From: Minisyncoccota bacterium
GTDB lineage: Bacteria; Patescibacteriota; Minisyncoccia; Minisyncoccales; JAGOPM01
Reading direction: 5' to 3'
DNA: 64,000 bases
Assembly (NCBI GenBank): GCA_041651395.1
Contig: JBAZJI010000001.1
Span: 89,169-153,168 of the forward strand
In this document: positions 1,898 through 56,365 of the stretch, in pieces
Numbering within the stretch: position 1 is the stretch's first letter
Layout of the letters: each line of letters begins with the position of its first letter
Notes under the pieces: model-generated
What the model saw: the letters and a program-made list of their open reading frames with translations, nothing else
Told to the model about the DNA's origin: nothing
Databases searched by the model: none
Made by a program: the position numbers and the translations under genes

Positions 1898-3139
1898 ATG
1901 AAATCATTTTATTCTTTTCGGACAGCTTTAATCGGGCTTAAAACAAACAGAACAAGGTCTTTCTTAACAATTTTGGGTATCGTAATCGGAATCACGGCTA
2001 TTATGATGGTGATGTCTTTAGGCGCGGGCGCGCAGAATTTAATTTTAGGGCAAATTAGTTCCTTGGGATCGAATTTAGTCTTTGTTTTGCCCGGGAAAGA
2101 AGTTTCCGGGGCCGGTATGCCCATGGATGCCTTGTATTCTGACGCTTTGAAAAATAAGGATTTGGAGCAAATTCAAAAGAAGAGTAATGTGCCCCATTTG
2201 AAATCTGCCATGCCAATTGTTTTTTCTAGTGAGGTAGTCACCCGAGGTTCGGACAGCTATCGTTATACGGTTTATGGGGTGACGGAGTTGATGAAGGATT
2301 TATATCAAATTGAAATGCAGTCCGGGGATTTTATTACGGCCAGTGATGTCAGCTCGCTTAACAATTCCGCAGTCATCGGCAAGCGCGTGGCGGAGAAATT
2401 ATTCCCTGATAATAATGCGGTGGGGGAAAAAATCAGGGTTAGGGATAGGTCTTTTAGGGTGGCTGGAGTTATGAAGGAAAAAGGCCAAGGCTCCATGGCC
2501 AATTTCGACGATGCCATTATTGTTCCTTATAATGTTTTGCAGCGTGACTTAATGGGGATTAAATATTTTCAGCGCTTAGTAGTGGAGGTGGATAGCGAAA
2601 AAAATATTGATGCCACGGTTCGGGATGTCCGCGACACTATTCGTGACTCGCATAATATCACCGATCCGGATAAGGATGATTTCCATGTTAATACCTCAGC
2701 TGATATTGCCAAGGCTGCGGGTACGGTTTTGGGAACTTTAACTATTTTTTTAGCCGCCGTGGCTGCCATTTCATTGCTGGTGGGTGGAGTGGGCATTATG
2801 AATATTGTTTTAGTTTCCGTGACTGAGCGCACGCGTGAAATCGGTTTGCGCAAAGCCTTAGGCGCGACTTCTAACGAAATTTTAATGCAATTCTTGATCG
2901 AATCGATGCTTTTGACTTCAAGTGGGGGGATAGTGGGCATAACTTTGGGAACCCTTTTGTCGTTTGCGGCTGCCACTATTATCACTAAAGTTGCTGGATT
3001 AAATTGGCCATTTTCTTTCCCTTGGCAGGCCGCTCTGCTTGGCTTTGCGGTCTCGGCTGGAATCGGTTTAGTTTTTGGTCTTTATCCGGCCAAAAAGGCC
3101 GCTGATCTGAGCCCCATAGAGGCTTTACGTTACGAATAA
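1898..3139 (+). CDS. ABC transporter permease, MacB/FtsX-like fold
   Basis: 413 aa with an N-terminal TM, a large extracytoplasmic domain and three C-terminal TMs. Carries the TREIGLRKALGA motif typical of the family. Its start is 2 nt after the ATPase stop. Confidence 0.9.
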   Translation: MKSFYSFRTALIGLKTNRTRSFLTILGIVIGITAIMMVMSLGAGAQNLILGQISSLGSNLVFVLPGKEVSGAGMPMDALYSDALKNKDLEQIQKKSNVPHLKSAMPIVFSSEVVTRGSDSYRYTVYGVTELMKDLYQIEMQSGDFITASDVSSLNNSAVIGKRVAEKLFPDNNAVGEKIRVRDRSFRVAGVMKEKGQGSMANFDDAIIVPYNVLQRDLMGIKYFQRLVVEVDSEKNIDATVRDVRDTIRDSHNITDPDKDDFHVNTSADIAKAAGTVLGTLTIFLAAVAAISLLVGGVGIMNIVLVSVTERTREIGLRKALGATSNEILMQFLIESMLLTSSGGIVGITLGTLLSFAAATIITKVAGLNWPFSFPWQAALLGFAVSAGIGLVFGLYPAKKAADLSPIEALRYE

Positions 3140-33492: not shown

Positions 33493-35982
33493 ATGAATTT
33501 TTTCACCAAGTTATTCGGGAATAAAAACGAAGAATTGGTTTCTAAAGTATTGCCGCTCGTAGAGCGGATAAACTCTCTTGAGAGTGGTTTAATCAAATTA
33601 AGCGATTTGGAGCTTAAAAATAAAACTCAGGAATTTCGTTCTCGGCTGAAAGACGGCCAGTCTCTTGATGAAATTTTGCCCGAGGCTTTTGCTGTAGTGC
33701 GCGAGACCTCCAAGAGAACACTCAAAAAACGGCATTTTGATTGTCAGCTAATCGGCGGCATTTTTTTGCATCGGGGCCATGTGGTAGAAATGAAAACCGG
33801 AGAAGGGAAGACTTTAACCGCTACCTTGGCTATGTATCTTAATGCCCTTGAAGGTAAGGGGGCGCATTTAGTGACAGTTAATGATTATTTGGCCAGACGT
33901 GATGCAGTTTGGATGGGGCAGATTTATAATTTTTTAGGTTTGACGGTTTCTTGCCTTAATAATGAGCAGACTTTTATTTACGATCCGGAGTATAAGAAAC
34001 CCGAAGAAAATAAGGAAAATCTCCGTGACGAATTAGGCGGGTTTTATGTAGTTGAGGATTATTTGCGCCCTTGCAGTAAAAAAGAAGCTTACGGTTGTGA
34101 TATTACCTATGGCACCAATAATGAGTTCGGTTTTGATTATCTGCGCGACAATATGATTTATGATTGCTCGGAAGCTTTGGCGCAAAATTTTAATTTTGCC
34201 ATCGTTGATGAAGTTGATTCTATTTTAATTGATGAGGCGCGCACGCCTTTGATAATCTCGGGAGTCTTACCGGAAGCCCCCGAGGGTTATTATAAATTTG
34301 CTAAAGTTGCCAAAGATTTAGTTAAGCCTTCCGATTACGAGATTGATGAAAAATCCAAGAGCCTAAAATTTACACAAAGCGGCGAAGATAATGTGACGAG
34401 GATTTTAGGATTTGATCCTTGGCAGGAAGTCGATTTTAAGACTATTCATCGTTTAGAAAATGCACTCAAGGCCAAAGAATTCCATCGTTTGGATCGGGAA
34501 TATGTTGTTCGTAATAATGAAATTGTCATTGTCGATGAATTTACGGGTCGGCTGATGCCGGGCCGCCGCTGGTCAGAGGGCCTACATCAGGCTATTGAGG
34601 CTAAGGAACATGTTTTCGGCAGCCCTTCGGTGGAAGTAAGACCGGAGAGTGTTACTTTGGCTACAGTTACTTTTCAAAATTTGTTCCGGAAATACAAAAA
34701 GCTTTCGGGCATGACGGGAACCGGCCAAACTTCGGCCGAGGAATTCGATAAAGTTTATAAAGTTGATGTCGTGAGTATTCCTACTAACCAGCCGGTTCAG
34801 CGCAAGGATGTTTCGGATAAGATTTTTAAGTCCGAGCAGGGGAAGCTAAAGGCCCTACTCAGAGAAATAAAAAATCGCCACGGAAAGAAACAACCGATAT
34901 TGGTCGGAACGCGTTCAATAGATAAGAGTGAGTATTTGGGCAAGATGTTGGAAGTGGAAGGTATAAGGCATCAAATTTTGAATGCCAAGAACCATGAAAA
35001 AGAGGCTCAAATTATCGCTCAAGCCGGCTCTCCGGGGGCTGTGACCATTGCTACCAATATGGCGGGCCGCGGTGTAGATATTATTTTGGGAGGCAACCCT
35101 CCCAAGGAAGAAGATGCAAAGACTGTCAAAGATTCCGGCGGTCTTTATGTTATTGGGACTGAGCGCCATGAGGCGCGGCGCATTGATAATCAGCTGCGCG
35201 GTCGCTCTGGGCGCCAAGGCGATCCGGGAGAGAGTTGCTTTTTCGTATCCTTGGAAGACGATTTAATGAGGATTTTTGGCGGGGAGGCGGTGAAGAATAT
35301 GATGGAGAGTCTGAAATTCCCCGAGGATGAACCGATCGAATCAAGCTTAATTTCGAAAAGTATCGAATCGGCCCAAAGCAAGGTAGAGGCTGCTAATTTT
35401 GATTCCCGCAAATATTTACTCGAATACGACGATGTGATGAATGCCCATCGGGAATATTTTTACCGCAAACGCCGCAAAACCGTGGAAGCGAACTTGGAGG
35501 ATTTAGTAAAAGATTTAATAGAGATTGGTGGTAAGGCTGGAGTAGATTCTAAAATTATAGATGAAAAAATATCCCAAATAGAGGAAAGTAAGCGCCTTTT
35601 TACCGTGCGCTTTGTGTATTTGAAAGTAATGGATTCTCTCTGGATTGAGCATTTGGAGACGATGCACCATTTGCGTGAATCAGTAGGTATTCGGGCTTTT
35701 GGTCAATTAGATCCAATAATCGAATATAAGAGGGAAGGCAAGCAGGCTTTTGATAGATTGGTCAATACCATGAGTGCCTCTATTTTAGATTCGTTTCTAG
35801 CTATTAAAACTGCCCTCAAGGAAGAGGAGGCCAAAACCGAGATGGAAGAGGCCAAAAATATTTTCCAGGGTTCCCCCGAGCCTAAAAAATTCAATAATAT
35901 AAAGGGTTTTGAGGGGGTAAATCGCAATGATCCTTGTCCTTGCGGTTCGGGCAAAAAATTTAAGAAGTGCCATGGGGCTTGA
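33493..35982 (+). CDS. secA: Preprotein translocase ATPase SecA
   Basis: 829 aa with MKTGEGKTL Walker A, the DEVDSILIDEARTPLIIS DEAD-like box, and a C-terminal zinc-binding CPCGSGKKFKKCHG. Confidence 0.97.
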   Translation: MNFFTKLFGNKNEELVSKVLPLVERINSLESGLIKLSDLELKNKTQEFRSRLKDGQSLDEILPEAFAVVRETSKRTLKKRHFDCQLIGGIFLHRGHVVEMKTGEGKTLTATLAMYLNALEGKGAHLVTVNDYLARRDAVWMGQIYNFLGLTVSCLNNEQTFIYDPEYKKPEENKENLRDELGGFYVVEDYLRPCSKKEAYGCDITYGTNNEFGFDYLRDNMIYDCSEALAQNFNFAIVDEVDSILIDEARTPLIISGVLPEAPEGYYKFAKVAKDLVKPSDYEIDEKSKSLKFTQSGEDNVTRILGFDPWQEVDFKTIHRLENALKAKEFHRLDREYVVRNNEIVIVDEFTGRLMPGRRWSEGLHQAIEAKEHVFGSPSVEVRPESVTLATVTFQNLFRKYKKLSGMTGTGQTSAEEFDKVYKVDVVSIPTNQPVQRKDVSDKIFKSEQGKLKALLREIKNRHGKKQPILVGTRSIDKSEYLGKMLEVEGIRHQILNAKNHEKEAQIIAQAGSPGAVTIATNMAGRGVDIILGGNPPKEEDAKTVKDSGGLYVIGTERHEARRIDNQLRGRSGRQGDPGESCFFVSLEDDLMRIFGGEAVKNMMESLKFPEDEPIESSLISKSIESAQSKVEAANFDSRKYLLEYDDVMNAHREYFYRKRRKTVEANLEDLVKDLIEIGGKAGVDSKIIDEKISQIEESKRLFTVRFVYLKVMDSLWIEHLETMHHLRESVGIRAFGQLDPIIEYKREGKQAFDRLVNTMSASILDSFLAIKTALKEEEAKTEMEEAKNIFQGSPEPKKFNNIKGFEGVNRNDPCPCGSGKKFKKCHGA

Positions 35983-38366: not shown

Positions 38367-39359
38367 ATGAACTTCAATTATGCAAAAATTTGCAAATCCC
38401 TCTTGGACGGCGTACAGTCCCGCGCCAAAGAGGTGATCGTGCGCCGGTTCGGTCTTGCCGCCAGCGAGCCCGAAACCCTCGAGTCAATTGGCGAGGATTT
38501 CAAGATTACCCGTGAACGGGTAAGGCAAATCCAAGAGCGCGCCTTAAAACAAATAAAGGAAAATAAAGGGGCGCAATTACAGGAGATTTTCAAGTATTTC
38601 GCCGAGGAAATGCAGCAATTCGGCGGATTAATGCGCGAAGAGGAAATCCTCAAGAAATGGGGTGGTAAAGACAACCAGAACCATGTTCTTTTCCTGTTGA
38701 ATCTCAATGAGAATTTCAAATTCTCTTCTGCCAATAAAGAATATGTGGCTTTTTGGTATACCGACGATAATGCGGTCAAAGAAGCCAAAAAGACTGTGGA
38801 AGGTTTTGTTAAGTATCTCAAGACTAAAGGCGCTCCTTGCAAATTGAGTGAATATGAAACCGGGCTTTCTGATTTTGTTTTGAATAATTATATCAGCATT
38901 TCCTCTGAAATACTGGTGAATAGTGAAGGGCTTTATGGCTTGGCATCTTGGCCGGAAGTAAATCCGCGTAATATTAGGGACAAAGCTTTCTTGGCTTTGA
39001 AGAAGTTGAGTAAGCCGCTGCATTTTTCTGAAATCTATGATATAATTACCAAGAGCCTGACTGGCGGAGAGAAGGCGATTTTATTGCAGTCCGTTCACAA
39101 TGAGCTTATTCGCAATCCGGAATTTGTTTTGATTGGCCGGGGTATTTATGCCTTAAAGGAATGGGGCTATCAACCAGGTTGGGTTAAGGATATTTTGGTT
39201 GAGTCATTGAAAAAAGAAAGGCGTGGACTCTCTAAGGATGAGCTCATCGAGAAAGTATTGGCCCAGAGGCAGGTAAAAAAATCTACCATCCTCTTAAACC
39301 TCTCCGATAAAGGATTTTTCCTGAAAGATCAGGACGGTAAATATATTTTGAAGGCCTAA
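38367..39359 (+). CDS. Sigma-70 region-4-like HTH protein with a C-terminal HARE-HTH-like domain
   Basis: ETLESIGEDFKITRERVRQIQERALKQIK is a region-4 HTH. The C-terminal LHFSEIYDII...FVLIGRGIYALKEWGY resembles the RpoE-delta/HARE-HTH domain. Confidence 0.6.
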   Translation: MNFNYAKICKSLLDGVQSRAKEVIVRRFGLAASEPETLESIGEDFKITRERVRQIQERALKQIKENKGAQLQEIFKYFAEEMQQFGGLMREEEILKKWGGKDNQNHVLFLLNLNENFKFSSANKEYVAFWYTDDNAVKEAKKTVEGFVKYLKTKGAPCKLSEYETGLSDFVLNNYISISSEILVNSEGLYGLASWPEVNPRNIRDKAFLALKKLSKPLHFSEIYDIITKSLTGGEKAILLQSVHNELIRNPEFVLIGRGIYALKEWGYQPGWVKDILVESLKKERRGLSKDELIEKVLAQRQVKKSTILLNLSDKGFFLKDQDGKYILKA

Positions 39360-41076: not shown

Positions 41077-42957
41077 ATGACTTCAGACAAATATACATTT
41101 TTTGCTTTCGCCAACTTTCGCGGCCAGCTTAAAAAATTCGGCATCAAGCCTGATGACCGGAGAAGGCACATGTATGTCATCGGAAAAACCGGTATGGGTA
41201 AATCCGAACTTTTACAGAACATGGCCATCCAAGACATTATTAATGGCAATGGTATGGCCTTTATCGATCCCCACGGAGATGCGGCCGAAAGGCTCATTGA
41301 AATGGTTCCGGAGAATCGCATAAAAGATGTTGTTTATTTTAATCCGGCCGATACCGACTATCCTTTTGCTTTTAATGTCATGGAGTCTGTCGATATCGAC
41401 AAAAGGCACTTGGTAACTGCCGGTTTGATGGGCGTATTCAAGAAAATTTGGCCTGATGTTTGGAGCGCTCGCATGGAGTATATTTTGAACAATACACTTT
41501 TGGCTCTAATGGATTATCCCGAGGCCACGCTTTTGGGTATCAATTGGATGTTTTCCGATTTGGAGTACCGGGAAAAAGTGGTTAATTCCATTCAAGATCC
41601 GGTGGTTAAGAATTTTTGGACCAAGGAATATGCCCGTTACAACCAACGCTATGAAGTAGAAGCTACGGCCGCCATTCAGAATAAAATCGGTCAATTTATC
41701 TCCAATCCTTTGATCCGTAATATTGTCGGTCAGCCGCATTCCAGTATCGATATCCGGCATGCGATGGATGAGGAAAAAATTATTATCCTTAATCTTTCTA
41801 AGGGCCGCGTGGGCGAAGATAATAGCCGCCTGCTTGGCGCGATGTTGGTTACTAAGATTTATTTGGCGGCCATGAGCCGGGTGGATATTGCGGAAAAGGA
41901 TCGACGGGATTTTTATCTCTATGTCGATGAGTTCCAAAATTTCGCCACAGAGGCCTTTGTTAATATTTTGTCTGAAGCGCGCAAATACCGCCTTTGCCTC
42001 ATTTTGGCGCACCAATATATCGCCCAGATGGAAGAAACCGTGCGCGATGCCGTTTTTGGTAACATGGGCACGCTTGTCACTTTTAGAATCGGGGCTGAAG
42101 ATTCTGAGCATATGGAAAAGGAATTTGCCCCAACCTTTTTGGCTGCGGATTTTGTTACTTTGCCTAAATATACTATTTATTTGAAATTGATGGTTGATGG
42201 TCTGGCAGGCTCGCCGTTTTCGGCCAATACTTTGCCGCCATGGCCCACTCCGCCCAAAACTTACGTGAGCGAAATAATCGAATTTTCGCGCAAGAACTTT
42301 GCTACGCCCCGGGCTATTGTTGATAAAACGATTGCTGACTGGGCCAATGCCCAAAAGGGCCCGGCAGATATGCCGCAAGGCAAGGGCGGGGAGCGCGGCG
42401 GCTTTAGCCGGGGTGCCGGAGAGCCAAGCTCTATCAGCCCCACTGGCGTTAAGCTCTATGATGCCAAATGCACTTCCTGCGGCAAGGATTTTAAGGTGCC
42501 CTTTGTTCCAGATACGAGCCGGCCGCTTTATTGCAAAACTTGCCTAAAGACTGTTATTGAAGGGAAGCAAAAGCCTCAGAGTACGCAGAATAAAATGGAA
42601 TACATGTCTTTGACCAATATCGGGTCACGCGAGGCTATGCCGTTTTTTATGCCCAAGGAAAAAGATGATAAAAAACGGCAAAACAAACCCGTAGATACAG
42701 ACGCGCTAAAGGATTTAATTGAGCGGGCATTCGAAAAGGGTGAAGGCGGTTTGATTCCCGAGTCAGAGGAATATAATGAAGGGCAACTAGAAGACCATCA
42801 AACTTTTTCCGGAGAAGACAATGAGGATTTAGATAATACTTATCCGTTTAGGGAAGAAGTTTCTCAAATTGATATGCCCGATATTGATTTATCCGAGGAG
42901 GAACCGCAAAAAGGCAAGTTAGAGCCGGGCAAAAAAGTGAAATTCGAAAAAAAGTAA
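41077..42957 (+). CDS. VirD4/TraD/TraG-like (HerA-FtsK superfamily) P-loop ATPase with a C-terminal CxxC-x17-CxxC zinc-ribbon motif and acidic tail
   Basis: Walker A IGKTGMGKSE, Walker B-like FYLYVDEFQNF and ARKYRLCLILAHQYIAQM (TraG/TraD C-terminal type). The cysteine motif is CTSCGKDFKVPFVPDTSRPLYCKTC, followed by a D/E-rich end. Confidence 0.75.
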   Translation: MTSDKYTFFAFANFRGQLKKFGIKPDDRRRHMYVIGKTGMGKSELLQNMAIQDIINGNGMAFIDPHGDAAERLIEMVPENRIKDVVYFNPADTDYPFAFNVMESVDIDKRHLVTAGLMGVFKKIWPDVWSARMEYILNNTLLALMDYPEATLLGINWMFSDLEYREKVVNSIQDPVVKNFWTKEYARYNQRYEVEATAAIQNKIGQFISNPLIRNIVGQPHSSIDIRHAMDEEKIIILNLSKGRVGEDNSRLLGAMLVTKIYLAAMSRVDIAEKDRRDFYLYVDEFQNFATEAFVNILSEARKYRLCLILAHQYIAQMEETVRDAVFGNMGTLVTFRIGAEDSEHMEKEFAPTFLAADFVTLPKYTIYLKLMVDGLAGSPFSANTLPPWPTPPKTYVSEIIEFSRKNFATPRAIVDKTIADWANAQKGPADMPQGKGGERGGFSRGAGEPSSISPTGVKLYDAKCTSCGKDFKVPFVPDTSRPLYCKTCLKTVIEGKQKPQSTQNKMEYMSLTNIGSREAMPFFMPKEKDDKKRQNKPVDTDALKDLIERAFEKGEGGLIPESEEYNEGQLEDHQTFSGEDNEDLDNTYPFREEVSQIDMPDIDLSEEEPQKGKLEPGKKVKFEKK

Positions 42958-45792: not shown

Positions 45793-46133
45793 GCCTAAGC
45801 AAGCAAACAATCGCTCTCTATCGCAAGATTGGGGGAGGAAAGTCCGAACTTTCACCGGCCGAAAGGTTGGTTAAAAAAGTAGCGGCTAACAGCCGTCGCC
45901 CGCGAGGGTTGAGGTGCGAACAGTGACGGGTCGCAACGAAAGACGCGATCGCCCCGCAAGGGGAAGCCTTGTAGTAATGCAAGGGTGAAACGGCCAAATC
46001 CTTACTGGATGCAAGAGCAAATTCATTCGCCTTTGGGCGGATGAAAAAAAGTAGCTCGCTTGACCTGTCAGGTAACTGATCAGGCAGACAAATGATTGTT
46101 TAATACAGAATTCGGCTTATTACTTGCTTAGGC
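45793..46133 (+). ncRNA. rnpB: RNase P RNA (bacterial)
   Basis: Universally conserved GGAGGAAAGTCCG and ACAGAATTCGGCTTA blocks. P1 pairs GCCTAAGCAAG (45793-) with CTTGCTTAGGC (-46133). A GC-rich island in AT-rich DNA. Confidence 0.92.
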
Positions 46134-46205
46134 TTTTCTTAAAAGCCTAAATAGAAAATATTTGCCGGCGGCGGCCGGCAACTCAAATCCAAACTAGAGG
46201 GCAAA

Positions 46206-50518: not shown

Positions 50519-50589
50519 GCGGGTATCGTATAATGGTATTACATGACCTTCCCAAGGTTAGGACACGGGTTCGATTCCCGTTACCCGCT
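50519..50589 (+). tRNA. tRNA-Gly (anticodon CCC)
   Basis: Manual cloverleaf. Acceptor GCGGGTA/TACCCGC. Anticodon arm TGACC-TTCCCAA-GGTTA. T arm ACGGG-TTCGATT-CCCGT. Discriminator U. CCA is not encoded. Confidence 0.9.
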
Positions 50590-50591
50590 CA

Positions 50592-50724
50592 TCTGAGCCT
50601 TCCCGCAGGGAATATAATACGGGAACGGAATAGAATCGAAGACGGAGTGCCGACTGGGCGCGAGTCGGGCCTAAGAGCGCGAGCAACGGCGAGCGACTCG
50701 AAGGCGATTCCCGTTACCCGCTCA
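50592..50724 (+). other. Truncated tRNA-Gly-like module with an 86-nt GC-rich T-loop region, ending in a 20-nt repeat of the tRNA 3' end
   Basis: The 20-mer cgattcccgttacccgctca occurs at 50572-50591 and 50705-50724. 50594-50610 resembles the anticodon arm. ACGGG 50619-50623 pairs with CCCGT 50710-50714. The region is homologous to 53144-53297. Confidence 0.55.
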
Positions 50725-50863
50725 GAATTCCTTCGATTTTTCTCTTATTTGTTATTATTATTTTAACTAACAGCAAATCCGCTCAAGGCGGATTTTTCGC
50801 ATGTGGAAAAAAACTTTTGGGCAAAAGGGAAATGAGTCTATAATAAAGTAAATAACTTTGTAT

Positions 50864-52021
50864 ATGGTTACAAAGGAACTTCTTGATTATATTAAGAAAC
50901 AAATTGCCAAAGGTGTTAGCCAGGAGGATGTCAGAAAAATACTTTTGCAATACAAGTGGGCCGAGGGTGATATCGGGGAAGCTTTTAATGTTATAAATCA
51001 GGCCAATCAGCCAAAAGTTGAAAAGCCCAAGATTGAAGTAAAGCCTCTTGATGAATTTCGAACCCAGCAACAGGCGGCCAAGCCAGCCACTGTTAGCGAA
51101 GCTAAGCCTCAAGTATCGCAGGCACAACCACAAACCCAAGCGGCTCAACCCCAGTCTCAGGCCGGCCCAAAGCCTGCTCCGGCTCAACCTGTTTTGCAGT
51201 CTCAAAGGCCGCAAGCGCCCAGTATCCAAGCTAAGCCAGTGGGAGGTGCTCAGTCGTCAATACAGCCTCAACCTCAGCCGCAACCCCAAGCTCAGCAGCC
51301 TAAACCTCAGGTGCAAGTGACAGTTCAAAAGCCGGTTCTGGAGAGCAAGCCTCAAACTTCGTATCGCGAACCGGTAACCACTTCGCCCCAGGCGCAGCCT
51401 CAACCGGCCTTGCAGCCTCGTGGCGCGGGGCAAGCTAGAGGGGCGGCGCCGCAATTTAATTTTGGTCCAATAATAATAGGATTGGTAATTTTGGTAATAG
51501 TCGGCTTGGCCGGATTCTTCGGCTATAAGGCGATAAATGATGCTAAAAAGCGCGAGCCTCTTGTTAAGCCAGAACAACCTGTCGTAACTACAACCCAGCC
51601 GCAAGCTGAAACACCAAAGCCACAAGCGCCTCAGAATCTTTCCAGCCCGCAATCAGTTAGTGATGAATCGATTGTAAAAGAATTGGAAGCTGTCATTGCT
51701 TATTTCAAAAATAAATCGGCTTATTCGGCCGACGAGAAGGCGGATTTGGAACAGAGTAACGAACTGGTTAATTTATCGTTTTTCTTCCAGTTATATAATT
51801 CCAAAAATTCCAAGTATCCGGAAAATATTGGCGACATTGTTTCACTGGGGAATTATAAAATGCTTAAGGAATATTCCGTTTCAATGTATAATTTTGCATA
51901 TGGCAAGACCAATGCTGGGGAATTCCGAATTTGTGCCCAATATTCGAAAGGGTATAGGTGTTTTTTAAGTGACGACGTTTTTAGAACAAGAGCCAAGACT
52001 TATTTGAAAAATCTCAAATAA
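50864..52021 (+). CDS. Membrane-anchored protein with a short N-terminal helical domain, a P/Q-rich linker and a C-terminal extracytoplasmic domain
   Basis: The N-terminal LLDYIKKQIAKGVSQEDVRKILL domain is shared with the next gene. A QPQ/KPQ low-complexity stretch is followed by a TM (IIIGLVILVIVGLAGFFGY). First ATG at 50864; the track uses the TTG at 50858. Confidence 0.55.
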   Translation: MVTKELLDYIKKQIAKGVSQEDVRKILLQYKWAEGDIGEAFNVINQANQPKVEKPKIEVKPLDEFRTQQQAAKPATVSEAKPQVSQAQPQTQAAQPQSQAGPKPAPAQPVLQSQRPQAPSIQAKPVGGAQSSIQPQPQPQPQAQQPKPQVQVTVQKPVLESKPQTSYREPVTTSPQAQPQPALQPRGAGQARGAAPQFNFGPIIIGLVILVIVGLAGFFGYKAINDAKKREPLVKPEQPVVTTTQPQAETPKPQAPQNLSSPQSVSDESIVKELEAVIAYFKNKSAYSADEKADLEQSNELVNLSFFFQLYNSKNSKYPENIGDIVSLGNYKMLKEYSVSMYNFAYGKTNAGEFRICAQYSKGYRCFLSDDVFRTRAKTYLKNLK

Positions 52022-53006: not shown

Positions 53007-53071
53007 CTGTTGAAAAATATGCCGATTTATGTTAAGATTTTTCAACAAGGAGCAGTTATCGCCCCTCAAGA

Positions 53072-53143
53072 GCCGATCTAGCTCAACGGTAGAGCAGCGG
53101 TATCGTAAACCGCAGGTTGGAGGTTCAAATCCTCTGATCGGCT
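53072..53143 (+). tRNA. tRNA-Thr (anticodon CGU)
   Basis: Manual cloverleaf. Acceptor GCCGATC/GATCGGC. D arm GCTC-AACGGTA-GAGC. Anticodon arm GCGGT-ATCGTAA-ACCGC. Variable loop AGGTT. T arm GGAGG-TTCAAAT-CCTCT. Confidence 0.9.
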
Positions 53144-53297
53144 CCTGGGGGGCGATTGGCCTTTAGACTCTTTTGTAAAGAGGAGGTTGGGGGCTTTGCG
53201 CGTTAGCGCAAAGGGCGCAGGCGCGACCGGCGCCGAGCCGGGCCCTGAGGCACGAACAGCAGTGAGTGACCGAAGGGCAAGTCCTCTCATCGGCTCA
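53144..53297 (+). other. Truncated tRNA-Thr-like module (UGU anticodon-type hairpin) with an 89-nt GC-rich T-loop region, ending in a 15-nt repeat of the tRNA 3' end
   Basis: Hairpin ACTCT-TTTGTAA-AGAGG (53167-53183). AGGTT 53184-53188 is identical to the tRNA variable loop. GGGGG 53189-53193 pairs with CCTCT 53283-53287. tcctct[g/c]atcggctc occurs at 53130-53144 and 53282-53296. Confidence 0.55.
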
Positions 53298-53317: not shown

Positions 53318-54431
53318 ATGGAATATAATATCTACGATATCCAAGAATTAGAAAAACGCATCGTCCATCTTATGGATTGTCTTTGACTTGGAGGCTAAAG
53401 CAAAACGCATCCAAGAATTAGAAAATCTGCAGGCCTCTCCTGATTTTTGGAATGATCCTCAAGAGGCGGCCAAGTTGCAAAAGGAGCTCTCCGACACCAA
53501 AGACGAGCTCGAAACCATAAAAGATCTGCAAAAAGAATCCAAAGAAATTGGGGAGCTTTTTGAGATGGCTCAAACGGATTCTAGTTTGCAGGAGGAATTG
53601 GATAAACATATCTCAGAGCTTAAGAAGAAGATTGAAAAGCAAGAAATGAAAGTATTTTTGTCCGGCAAATACGATAAGGGGGATGCAATCTTAAGTATTA
53701 ATTCCGGGGCAGGCGGCAACGAAGCCGAGGATTGGGCTTCTATGCTTTCTCGGATGTATCAAAGATGGGCCGACAAAAAAGGTTTTAGCATTTCTATCTT
53801 AGATGAAAGCCGGGGAGAGGTTAGCCCCGAAACCGGAAAAGCGGGGCTCAAGAGTATTTCCATGGAAATATCCGGAAAATATGCTTACGGCTATTTGCAT
53901 AAAGAGAGTGGCGTACATCGTTTAGTGCGTATTAGTCCATTTTCAGCCCAAAGCTTGAGACACACTTCTTTTGCTGGTGTTGAAGTGATGCCGCTCATTT
54001 CTGATATCGATGCGAAGTCTTTTGAGCTGAATCCGGCCGAAATCCGGATGGAAACTAGCAAATCTGGTGGAGCGGGCGGGCAAAATGTGAATAAGCGCGA
54101 AACGGCTGTTAGGATAGTGCATATACCAAGCAATATTGCTGTAACTTGTTCAAGTGAACGTTCACAGTTGCTCAACCGTGAAAAAGCGATTAAAATACTC
54201 AAGAGCAAACTGTTTCAATTAAAAGAGCAGGAGAGGCAGGAAGAAATTTCCAAGATGAAGGGCGAGAGGCGGAGTGTGGATTTTGGTAGCCAGATTAGGA
54301 GCTATGTATTGCACCCCTATAAGTTAGTTAAGGATTTACGTACCGATTATGAAACGAGCCAAGCCGAGGGAGTACTAGACGGAGATTTGGATGGATTCAT
54401 AGAGGCAGAGCTCAAAGATACAAGCATATGA
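53318..54431 (+). CDS. prfB: Peptide chain release factor 2 with a programmed +1 frameshift (join 53318..53383, 53385..54431)
   Basis: Frame 0 reads MEYNIYDIQELEKRIVHLMDCL and stops at CTT TGA C (53381-53387). The +1 frame continues DLEAKAKRIQELE. SPF (RISPFS) and GGQ (GAGGQNVNK) motifs are present. Confidence 0.93.
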
Positions 54432-56158: not shown

Positions 56159-56161
56159 CAT

Positions 56162-56197
56162 AAGCAAAAGGCGCCACAACGTGGCGCTTTTTGCTTA
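56162..56197. terminator. Long perfect hairpin terminator
   Basis: AAGCAAAAGGCGCCAC / GTGGCGCTTTTTGCTT, a stem of about 16 bp with loop AAC. Confidence 0.8.
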
Positions 56198-56365
56198 TTT
56201 CTGACGCTAGACTTTTGATTCGAACAAGAATCCTTTGCTTTGGTAAAGGCAGAAGGGGTCGGGGAGATTTTAAGGAAATTTCCCCTAGTAACGGCCTAAA
56301 AATCATTAATCCCGAAAAAGCGGTTGAAAAAGCTTCCAAAATGGCGCAAGAGCAATAGCTAAAGT

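Follow-up and report, generated by a model that had tools for sequence, protein, structure and literature searches.

Elements that integrate into transfer RNA (tRNA) genes are known to regenerate the tRNA and to displace a fragment of the original gene (Islander, PMC4383910; tRNA gene fragments, PMC9897764; Williams 2002). The sites of class II integrases lie in the T-loop, and the identity core of phage Ms6 extends over 26 bp (PMC1762012). Free-standing GIY-YIG homing endonuclease cassettes, exemplified by SegB of phage T4, also adjoin tRNA genes (PMC2330249). In the current analysis we have examined the tRNA-Gly(CCC) gene, with a sister case at tRNA-Thr(CGT), in a stretch of 64,000 nucleotides from a Minisyncoccota bacterium (assembly GCA_041651395.1, contig JBAZJI010000001.1, positions 89,169 to 153,168), hereafter referred to as the window. 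The tRNA-Gly gene is followed by a short module that ends in a second copy of the tRNA 3' end and carries a GC-rich core in place of a proper T-loop. The module is probably a scar of mobile DNA in two layers, in which a regenerated tRNA and its displaced 3' fragment (an att-type or gene-replacement scar at T-loop position 55/56) have been secondarily invaded by a tiny structured insertion and are co-transcribed as a trailer.

The locus resembles the class II scars of tyrosine integrases in having a complete tRNA together with a direct repeat of its 3' end, and in a block of identity that begins in the T-loop and stops shortly after the 3' end (20 nt, as against 26 nt in Ms6). Foreign or diverged sequence to the left of the displaced block, a module-less allele in a close relative and the involvement of several tRNA genes are further points of likeness. 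It is unlike such scars in that 113-160 nt, rather than kilobases, lie between the repeats, that no integrase or other open reading frame (ORF) is present, that the element-side arm is tRNA-like and that a covarying GC-rich unit abuts the crossover point. The original prediction, made from the sequence alone, had held that no described feature class matches the locus. This was too strong, a regenerated tRNA with a displaced fragment being the textbook signature of tRNA-gene integration; scars of this kind are known, and it is the ORF-less size of ~113 nt and the covarying GC-rich mini-insert that are undescribed.

Miniature inverted-repeat transposable elements (MITEs), Rickettsia palindromic elements, Correia elements and the repetitive extragenic palindromes and bacterial interspersed mosaic elements (REP/BIME) are also tiny and devoid of ORFs, with GC-rich hairpins and short direct repeats. 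MITE-type elements share with the core its presence or absence between strains, its occurrence in more than one copy per genome and differences that preserve structure. The core differs from them in its length of ~54-56 nt, at or below the small end of their range, in having no terminal inverted repeats that could be found, and in its two observed copies both lying in tRNA remnants at ...CGAAGG/C. We know of no cognate transposase for it. The self-splicing insertions in tRNA genes of the same phylum are likewise structured and missed by standard annotation; they occupy the anticodon loop (35/36 and other positions), are at least 200 nt long and interrupt the only functional copy of the gene, whereas the inserts described here are 62-81 nt long, lie in the T-loop of a redundant remnant and match no intron model.

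The intact tRNA genes and the repeats of their 3' ends

The features of the two modules are collected in Table 1.

Table 1. Features of the tRNA-Gly and tRNA-Thr modules (window coordinates)
Feature	Position	Strand	Basis or remark
tRNA-Gly(CCC), intact, no encoded CCA	50519-50590	+	ARAGORN; Rfam RF00005, 62.4 bits
Repeat copy 1 (attL-like): T-loop C56 to acceptor 3' strand, discriminator and 2 nt	50572-50591	+	Exact 20-mer
TCTGAGC, 5' strand of the module's closing stem	50592-50598	+	Pairs with GCTCAGA 50720-50726 in the minimum free energy (MFE) fold
Anticodon-arm-like hairpin TTCCC-GCA-GGGAA, 3-nt loop	50600-50612	+	Resembles the tRNA anticodon arm 50544-50557
T-stem 5'-like strand ACGGGAA	50619-50625	+	Pairs with TTCCCGT 50708-50714; fold; inverted repeat
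Older filler of the pseudo-T-loop, CGGAATAGAATCGAAG	50626-50641	+	Present in L001 too; ends in left direct repeat TCGAAG (50636-50641)
GC-rich insertion unit, 62 nt (56 nt plus right direct repeat TCGAAG, 50698-50703)	50642-50703	+	Direct repeats, empty site, covarying helix, covariance model match of 87.6 bits
Hairpin A of Gly core	50650-50668
Hairpin B of Gly core	50669-50705		Last two paired bases past the unit's end
Repeat copy 2 (attR-like), displaced tRNA-Gly 3' end	50705-50724	+
Canonical terminator hairpin AAATCCGC/GCGGATTT (50775-50795) and T run	50775-50800	+	End of the tRNA-Gly transcription unit
tRNA-Thr leader/trailer helix, 21 bp	53058-53156	+	53058-53078 pairs with 53136-53156; inverted repeat, 90% complementary
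tRNA-Thr(CGT), intact	53072-53145	+	ARAGORN; Rfam
tRNA-Thr remnant module: anticodon-arm-like hairpin CTCTTT-TGT-AAAGAG, GGGGG T-stem 5' strand, insert, displaced 3' end	53146-53297	+
Homologous 62-nt unit of the Thr module	53217-53278	+	Bounded by AAGGGC 53211-53216 and 53273-53278
Displaced tRNA-Thr 3' end, CAAGTCCTCTCATCGGCTC	53278-53296	+	17/19 identical to tRNA stretch 53126-53144

The exact 20-mer CGATTCCCGTTACCCGCTCA has only two sites in the window. The second begins 133 nt downstream of the first, leaving 113 nt between the copies, and the chance expectation for such a repeat is ~1e-7. In tRNA nomenclature the identity block runs from C56 to N73+2. Both the tRNA and the repeat had been predicted from the sequence, and ARAGORN, Rfam and a string search of the window have confirmed them at their positions.

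The second, truncated copy of the tRNA begins 4 nt past the intact one and reaches from the anticodon arm, where the tRNA-like stretch TGAGCCTTCCCGCAGGG (50594-50610) lies, to 2 nt beyond the 3' end. As had been recognised, it has no 5' acceptor strand and no D arm; its anticodon loop is closed to 3 nt and it does not form the cloverleaf of a functional tRNA (RF00005), with no tRNA match in 50591-50740 even at E<=10 in Rfam. The first two bases of the T-loop are represented by 81 extra nucleotides. The earlier counts for the pseudo-T-loop stretch (50624-50709), 86 nt of which 53 are G or C, and the pairing ACGGG(AA)/(TT)CCCGT that encloses it were reproduced, and the hairpin strings CCGACT/AGTCGG (50650-55/50663-68) and CGC/GCG (50678-80/50689-91) stand where they had been placed. 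The strings and coordinates reported earlier for the module are correct with one exception, CCTTCGA, which occupies 50730-50736 and not 50729-50735. The closing stem TCTGAGC/GCTCAGA is retained, through a C-to-U wobble change, in the homologous module of a 'Candidatus Saccharibacteria' metagenome-assembled genome (MAG; locus L001), whose prfB gene is 95% identical to that of the window.

The 113 nt between the repeats contain no real ORF. Rfam 15, applied to both the Gly and the Thr modules down to E<=10, revealed no family among introns, ribozymes, small RNAs or leaders; the only overlaps were at chance level (ylbH on the minus strand, 20.7 bits against a threshold of 50, and tmRNA_permuted, 15.1 bits against 47). 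The Rfam search that had been proposed as a check gives no ground for reclassification. A tmRNA-like RNA was dropped as a candidate, the 15-bit match being derived from the T-arm alone, and so was a T-loop intron or permuted tRNA, the upstream tRNA being complete.

A terminator had been suggested from TCGAAGG and CCTTCGA around the repeat. That pairing would enclose a loop of 25 nt, is not used in the MFE fold and is lost in L001; the canonical terminator is found further downstream (Table 1). As it sits 3' of the Gly module, the module is the 3' trailer of the tRNA-Gly unit, and with prfB directly following the Thr module both modules should be transcribed as tRNA trailers.

The divergence of the Gly remnant is uneven, with 20/20 positions identical to the right of the insert and about one third changed in the tRNA-like part to the left. 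An att-type crossover, or conversion at a later time, would fit a perfectly identical right part next to a left part so strongly diverged. In the proposed first layer, DNA would have recombined into the T-loop of tRNA-Gly between positions 55 and 56, bringing a substitute for the 3' part or for the gene as a whole. The outcome would be the intact regenerated tRNA and, 113 nt on, the displaced 3' end, which follows a degenerate tRNA-like piece made of the anticodon-arm hairpin and the T-stem 5' strand. Like events would have taken place at tRNA-Thr in the same genome and at tRNA-Gln in the sister strain.

The history of such an event can be read most clearly at tRNA-Thr. The left part of its remnant (anticodon arm and T-stem 5' strand) matches the tRNA-Thr type of the related loci L086 and L089, with a score of 20 as against 9 for the resident tRNA, and in both these loci that tRNA-Thr type abuts prfB. 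In L087, with a prfB gene 96% identical to that of the window, tRNA-Thr abuts prfB without a module. Left of C56 the L087 tRNA-Thr is identical to the resident tRNA of the window at 38/38 positions; right of C56 it follows the displaced copy of the window (17/20 as against 14/20) and the prfB flank. These comparisons suggest that the old tRNA-Thr gene exchanged its 5' part for that of an incoming tRNA-Thr cassette. The leader/trailer helix, in which L001 shows one compensatory C-G to T-A change, makes the intact tRNA-Thr gene and its flanks one unit; it could be a stem used in processing, or else the inverted ends that a tRNA cassette brought with it. Classical att recombination and cassette replacement are inseparable here, and both would leave scars of mobile DNA.

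The GC-rich unit within the remnants

Both modules contain a 62-nt unit that is bounded by exact 6-nt direct repeats spaced 62 nt apart (TCGAAG at 50636 and 50698; AAGGGC at 53211 and 53273), and when the pairs are widened to 8 nt each matches at 7/8 positions. The GC-rich inserts of the two modules align with a local score of 32, as against 16.1 +/- 2.6 for dinucleotide shuffles, none of which reached that score in 1000 trials; the homology to the tRNA-Thr insert that had been proposed is thus significant. The Gly module of L001 is colinear with that of the window and reads GAATCGAAGGCGATTC at the position of the core, which is an exact empty site. Of the marks of a MITE-type element the core has the discrete unit with a target-site duplication and an empty-site allele.

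Folded independently, each of the three available sequences is predicted to form the long hairpin of the core. In an ungapped alignment of the three sequences its helix has 5 compensatory pairs, and 83% of the cells are paired as compared to ~30% with slid partners; resting on three sequences, from which the structure itself was derived, the counts are suggestive. A K-turn in hairpin B was considered and rejected, its tandem G-A pairs being Watson-Crick pairs in L001.

In the proposed second layer, an ORF-less GC-rich insertion of ~54-56 nt with a 6-8-nt target duplication, 62 nt in all, would have entered the pseudo-T-loop of the remnant. The unit has two hairpins, occupies a ...CGAAGG/C site in both the Gly and the Thr remnants and is absent from the Gly remnant of the sister strain. 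Lying between tRNA and terminator, the module would be transcribed as a 3' trailer and removed during tRNA maturation. We infer recombination of this kind with mobilisation in trans, and a module that has no function in the cell and survives as selfish or neutral DNA. Among the options raised in the original prediction, the evidence best supports the miniature T-loop element or att-type scar, in the two-layer form given here, with a repeat that starts from C56 and a 62-nt unit with direct repeats and an empty site.

Searches for other occurrences of the core were negative within their respective scopes. Neither the covariance model nor blastn-short found a further copy in 205 kb of related loci, and within this scope the BLASTN check that had been proposed yields the homologous Thr copy but no more. 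The core DNA pattern had 0 matches in IMG/VR, BLAST of both modules against phage records gave nothing meaningful, and a profile of the translated core run against 5.8 billion proteins returned the same genome only. A pattern consisting of T-loop, N, GAAGG and T-loop had 8 matches in IMG/VR, none with a repeated tRNA 3' end, and these are ascribed to chance. A casposon- or CRISPR-like long target duplication was set aside in the absence of Cas1 and of terminal inverted repeats, and retroposition likewise, an A8 tract being present only at the tRNA-Gln of L082.

Several observations weigh against a two-layer scar of mobile DNA. The agent is unseen: neither in the 113 nt nor elsewhere in the window was a recombinase, transposase or homing endonuclease gene found by domain scans of ORFs combined with precomputed Pfam assignments for 40-61 kb (precomputed tables only beyond 57.4 kb, and with a few mid-window ORFs such as 33493-35982 and 38367-39359 left out). 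A tblastn search of the window with the GIY-YIG protein of L082 also gave nothing. An integrase gene inside a kilobase-sized element, which marks integration scars, is lacking, and to our knowledge all integrative elements are far larger than 113-160 nt. No terminal inverted repeats matching an insertion sequence family were found between the core ends, and the flanking direct repeats could equally mark loss by slippage. The core has ~69% GC in a genome of 41% GC, which together with the compensatory changes suggests selection on structure, something that a functionless scar would not need. Only two core copies occur in the window and a 10 kb extension; with no others found, mobility rests on one empty site and two insertion sites. 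In the Thr case, the acceptor 3' strand CTTTGGC of L087 is not complementary to the 5' strand of the window, and L087 is therefore no simple empty site of this exact allele; the leader/trailer helix is more readily explained by replacement with an entire tRNA cassette than by classical att recombination.

Relatives and competing explanations

A prfB scan of genome contigs yielded mostly Firmicutes, with L001 and L052 as the useful ones, and a DUF5684 scan of metagenome contigs yielded one locus, L081. The L081 locus is identical to L001, and both come from other samples than the window. The window has Gly and Thr modules with the core and no Gln module. L001 and L081 have the Gly module without the core, a Thr module with the core and a palindrome, and a tRNA-Gln 3' fragment. 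L087 has no module at tRNA-Thr and, upstream of tRNA-Gln, a tRNA-Gln 5' fragment, a hairpin and a decayed GIY-YIG gene. In L082-84 (prfB 70% identical) 5' fragments with a 39-40-nt palindrome lie upstream of tRNA-Gly and tRNA-Thr, a GIY-YIG gene (PF01541, 7.9e-12) precedes tRNA-Thr, and a near-full copy of tRNA-Gln carries a palindrome. L085, L086, L089 and L138-141 (55-79%) have no modules at the tRNA-Gly, -Thr and -Gln genes that they cover, L086 and L089 covering tRNA-Thr only. Absence of the Gly module is seen in the more distant relatives only (L082, L085, L138).

The Gly module of L001 additionally has an 11-nt duplication and, within its copy of the T-stem 3' strand, a palindrome of 20 nt, CCTGCTTACCGGCAGGCAGG; three discrete indels within 200 nt separate it from the window at 95% identity of prfB. 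The repeat starts at T-loop C56 in the Gly and Thr genes and in the tRNA-Gln of L001, is preceded in each by ...GAAGG(G), and has 2-3 mismatches in Thr and Gln. The tRNA alleles at these loci differ far more than expected at these distances, and tRNA-Gly, -Thr and -Gln are hot spots at which small insertions of different kinds occur.

GC palindromes of the form CCTGCC(TGCC)n-GGYA-(GGCA)nGG, 16-40 nt long, have been identified inside displaced tRNA fragments of several Saccharibacteria, in the D-loop, at position 7/8 and in the T-stem 3' strand (L001 3261-3280 and 5867-5896; L082 1949-1988, 4513-4552 and 10359-10375; L087 ~2854-2883; IMG/VR stretches L090-L136). The palindrome 20-mer CCTGCCTGCCGGYAGGCAGG is also present in 47 stretches of IMG/VR, whose GC ranges between 0.33 and 0.70 and among which the high-GC matches may partly be due to chance; one copy (L120) is situated within a phage tRNA-Met, in its variable loop, and ARAGORN still calls this tRNA. 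In the literature we have found no paper on tRNA-like RNAs in Saccharibacteria nor on the palindrome sequence.

Small GIY-YIG genes of 80-90 aa are located in L082 (4572-4814), L087 (~2890-3130, frameshifted) and L131 (~553-815), beside tRNA-Thr, tRNA-Gln and a tRNA with a group-I-like intron. They stand between a displaced, palindrome-bearing tRNA 5' fragment and an intact, sequence-divergent tRNA. The arrangement recalls SegB-type cassettes and looks like tRNA gene replacement driven by a homing endonuclease. A GIY-YIG gene with a fragment on one side and a divergent tRNA on the other is what homing with co-conversion is expected to leave, which gives the same lineage a means of replacing tRNA genes. 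The window differs in having no GIY-YIG gene and in having 3' fragments downstream, where those loci have 5' fragments upstream.

In L052 (3638-3710), another Saccharibacteria genome, tRNA-Gln is succeeded at a distance of 3 nt by a partial copy that extends from the variable loop as far as the 3' end and has a 50-nt structured insert exactly between TTCG and AATCC of its T-loop. The junction is a different one and the insert is unrelated, indicating that T-loop-interrupted remnants arose more than once. The sequence breaks off completely after the tRNA-Gln 3' end in the window (56160-56260), L001 (8824-9000) and L087 (3204-3233), a synteny breakpoint at which these three strains, with prfB 95-96% identical, each have their own terminator hairpin.

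The module could alternatively be a functional structured RNA, either a tRNA-derived non-coding RNA or a cis-element, which is transcribed together with the tRNA and set free when the 3' end is processed; it might then serve as a stable trailer small RNA, as a processing or stability element, as an aid to the tRNA-Gly terminator or, for Thr, as the prfB 5' leader. We regard this as unlikely. Its place inside the tRNA transcription unit, the covarying core helix, the stable predicted folds (-58.5 kcal/mol, z = -2.2 for Gly; -74.6, z = -3.8 for Thr), the closure of the remnant anticodon loops into neat triloop hairpins rather than random decay and the retention of the 3' 20-mer at 20/20 positions would all agree with a function, and the tRNA-Ala gene 10 kb past the window also has a GC-rich structured trailer. 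However, the module is missing at orthologous loci of close as well as distant relatives, including the strain with 96% identical prfB. The Gly module of L001 is without the 62-nt core altogether, yet its T-stem copy has received unrelated palindromes. The isolated Gly core folds with a z-score of only -1.15, no Rfam family matches, and the downstream contexts are unlike each other, a terminator for Gly and prfB for Thr. The patchy, strain-level distribution weakens the case for a conserved tRNA-derived RNA. The corresponding option in the original prediction holds as to the covarying core hairpin and the location in the tRNA transcription unit, but not as to distribution, the module being absent in L087, L085, L086, L089 and L138-141. 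A cellular RNA function is poorly supported. The trailer of tRNA-Ala(CGC) (L150 20188-20345, in the same genome, ~10 kb past the right end of the window) is a ~75-nt GC-rich imperfect hairpin with four GGTTC motifs followed by a T run; it has no repeat of the tRNA 3' end and no match to the core model.

Plain tandem duplication of the 3' two-thirds of the tRNA followed by decay, with the GC-rich stretch gained through slippage or ectopic conversion and no site-specific recombination, appears improbable. A copy that is placed 4 nt after the first, begins with the anticodon arm and stops 2 nt beyond the 3' end is what a 50-nt duplication would give, and tRNA-Gln of L082 does have a near-full tandem copy that includes the trailer. 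The decay is grossly uneven, however, with 0/20 changes to the right of the insert against about one third to the left, and the Thr remnant derives from another tRNA-Thr allele than the resident gene. The identical T-loop start of the repeat in three tRNAs, and a junction motif and homologous 62-nt unit common to two different tRNA remnants, also speak against it.

A guide-RNA-like module of the TnpB/IscB omega-RNA type, with a scaffold and a ~20-nt 3' guide identical to the tRNA 3' end, would account for a GC-rich scaffold followed by a 20-nt exact match to a nearby target, with the T-loop GGTT lying 5' of that target. It is very improbable: no TnpB, IscB or TnpA gene was found in the scanned window or the related loci, the scaffold is only ~60-80 nt (omega-RNAs, ~100-250 nt), the Thr and Gln 'guides' have 2-3 mismatches, and L001 keeps the Gly repeat without the scaffold.

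That the module is an artefact of assembly or sequencing, or else represents an intron or an alternative 3' exon, is hardly credible: GC-rich hairpins can break assemblies and several related contigs end here, but an independent ENA assembly (ERZ27247363, k141_1056181, 951,739 bp) is 100% identical over 20 kb, a 957-kb NCBI contig of the source species has an identical prfB, L001 and L081 from other samples have homologous modules, the upstream tRNA is complete without splicing and no intron or ribozyme model matches, which leaves, of the earlier option of a tRNA pseudogene or intron-like insertion, the pseudogene or remnant but not the intron.

Genomic setting and significance

The gene order of the region is murJ, lepA, a divIC-like gene, tRNA-Gly(CCC), three small genes, tRNA-Thr(CGT), prfB, ftsE, ftsX and tRNA-Gln(CTG). 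This housekeeping order from murJ to tRNA-Gln is kept in relatives with prfB 55-96% identical. An Rfam scan of the window at gathering level revealed three tRNAs and RNase P only, the class A RNase P RNA (45795-46135) scoring 109 bits, barely over the threshold of 100. A 387-aa ORF (50858-52021) without a Pfam match lies immediately 3' of the Gly module; its middle, especially 51050-51480, is of low complexity and rich in Pro, Gln and Ala, with GC up to 74%. The prfB gene has a programmed +1 frameshift site, CTT TGA C, at 53381-53387, 22 codons past the ATG at 53318, and the site is kept in every fetched relative. A 626-aa protein (41077-42957) with TrwB/TraG-type coupling-protein and HerA-like ATPase domains and a treble-clef zinc finger is encoded in surroundings that are otherwise housekeeping.

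More speculatively, and with considerable doubt, the ~56-nt core and its ...GAAGG/C56 frame may represent an undescribed class of ultra-small ORF-less elements of Saccharibacteria or the Candidate Phyla Radiation (CPR), homing to the tRNA T-loop region or to tRNA-like DNA, with mobilisation that is brought about in trans or by way of folded single strands. Such elements, the CCTGCC...GGCAGG palindromes and the GIY-YIG mini-genes might jointly form an ecosystem of selfish DNA that drives rapid replacement of tRNA genes in these reduced genomes.

For annotation, the scar of mobile DNA proposed here explains why tRNA-like fragments and 'orphan' ORFs high in GC are found in MAGs of Saccharibacteria, and it marks sites at which assemblies break. 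True mobility of the 62-nt unit would rank it with the smallest insertion elements of bacteria, and a structure-specific recombinase would then be suggested by its hairpins. If this reading is true, tiny selfish insertions would lie densely around tRNA genes and turn over rapidly even in CPR genomes of ~1 Mb, and the tRNA alleles of these organisms would be replaced and not slowly mutated.

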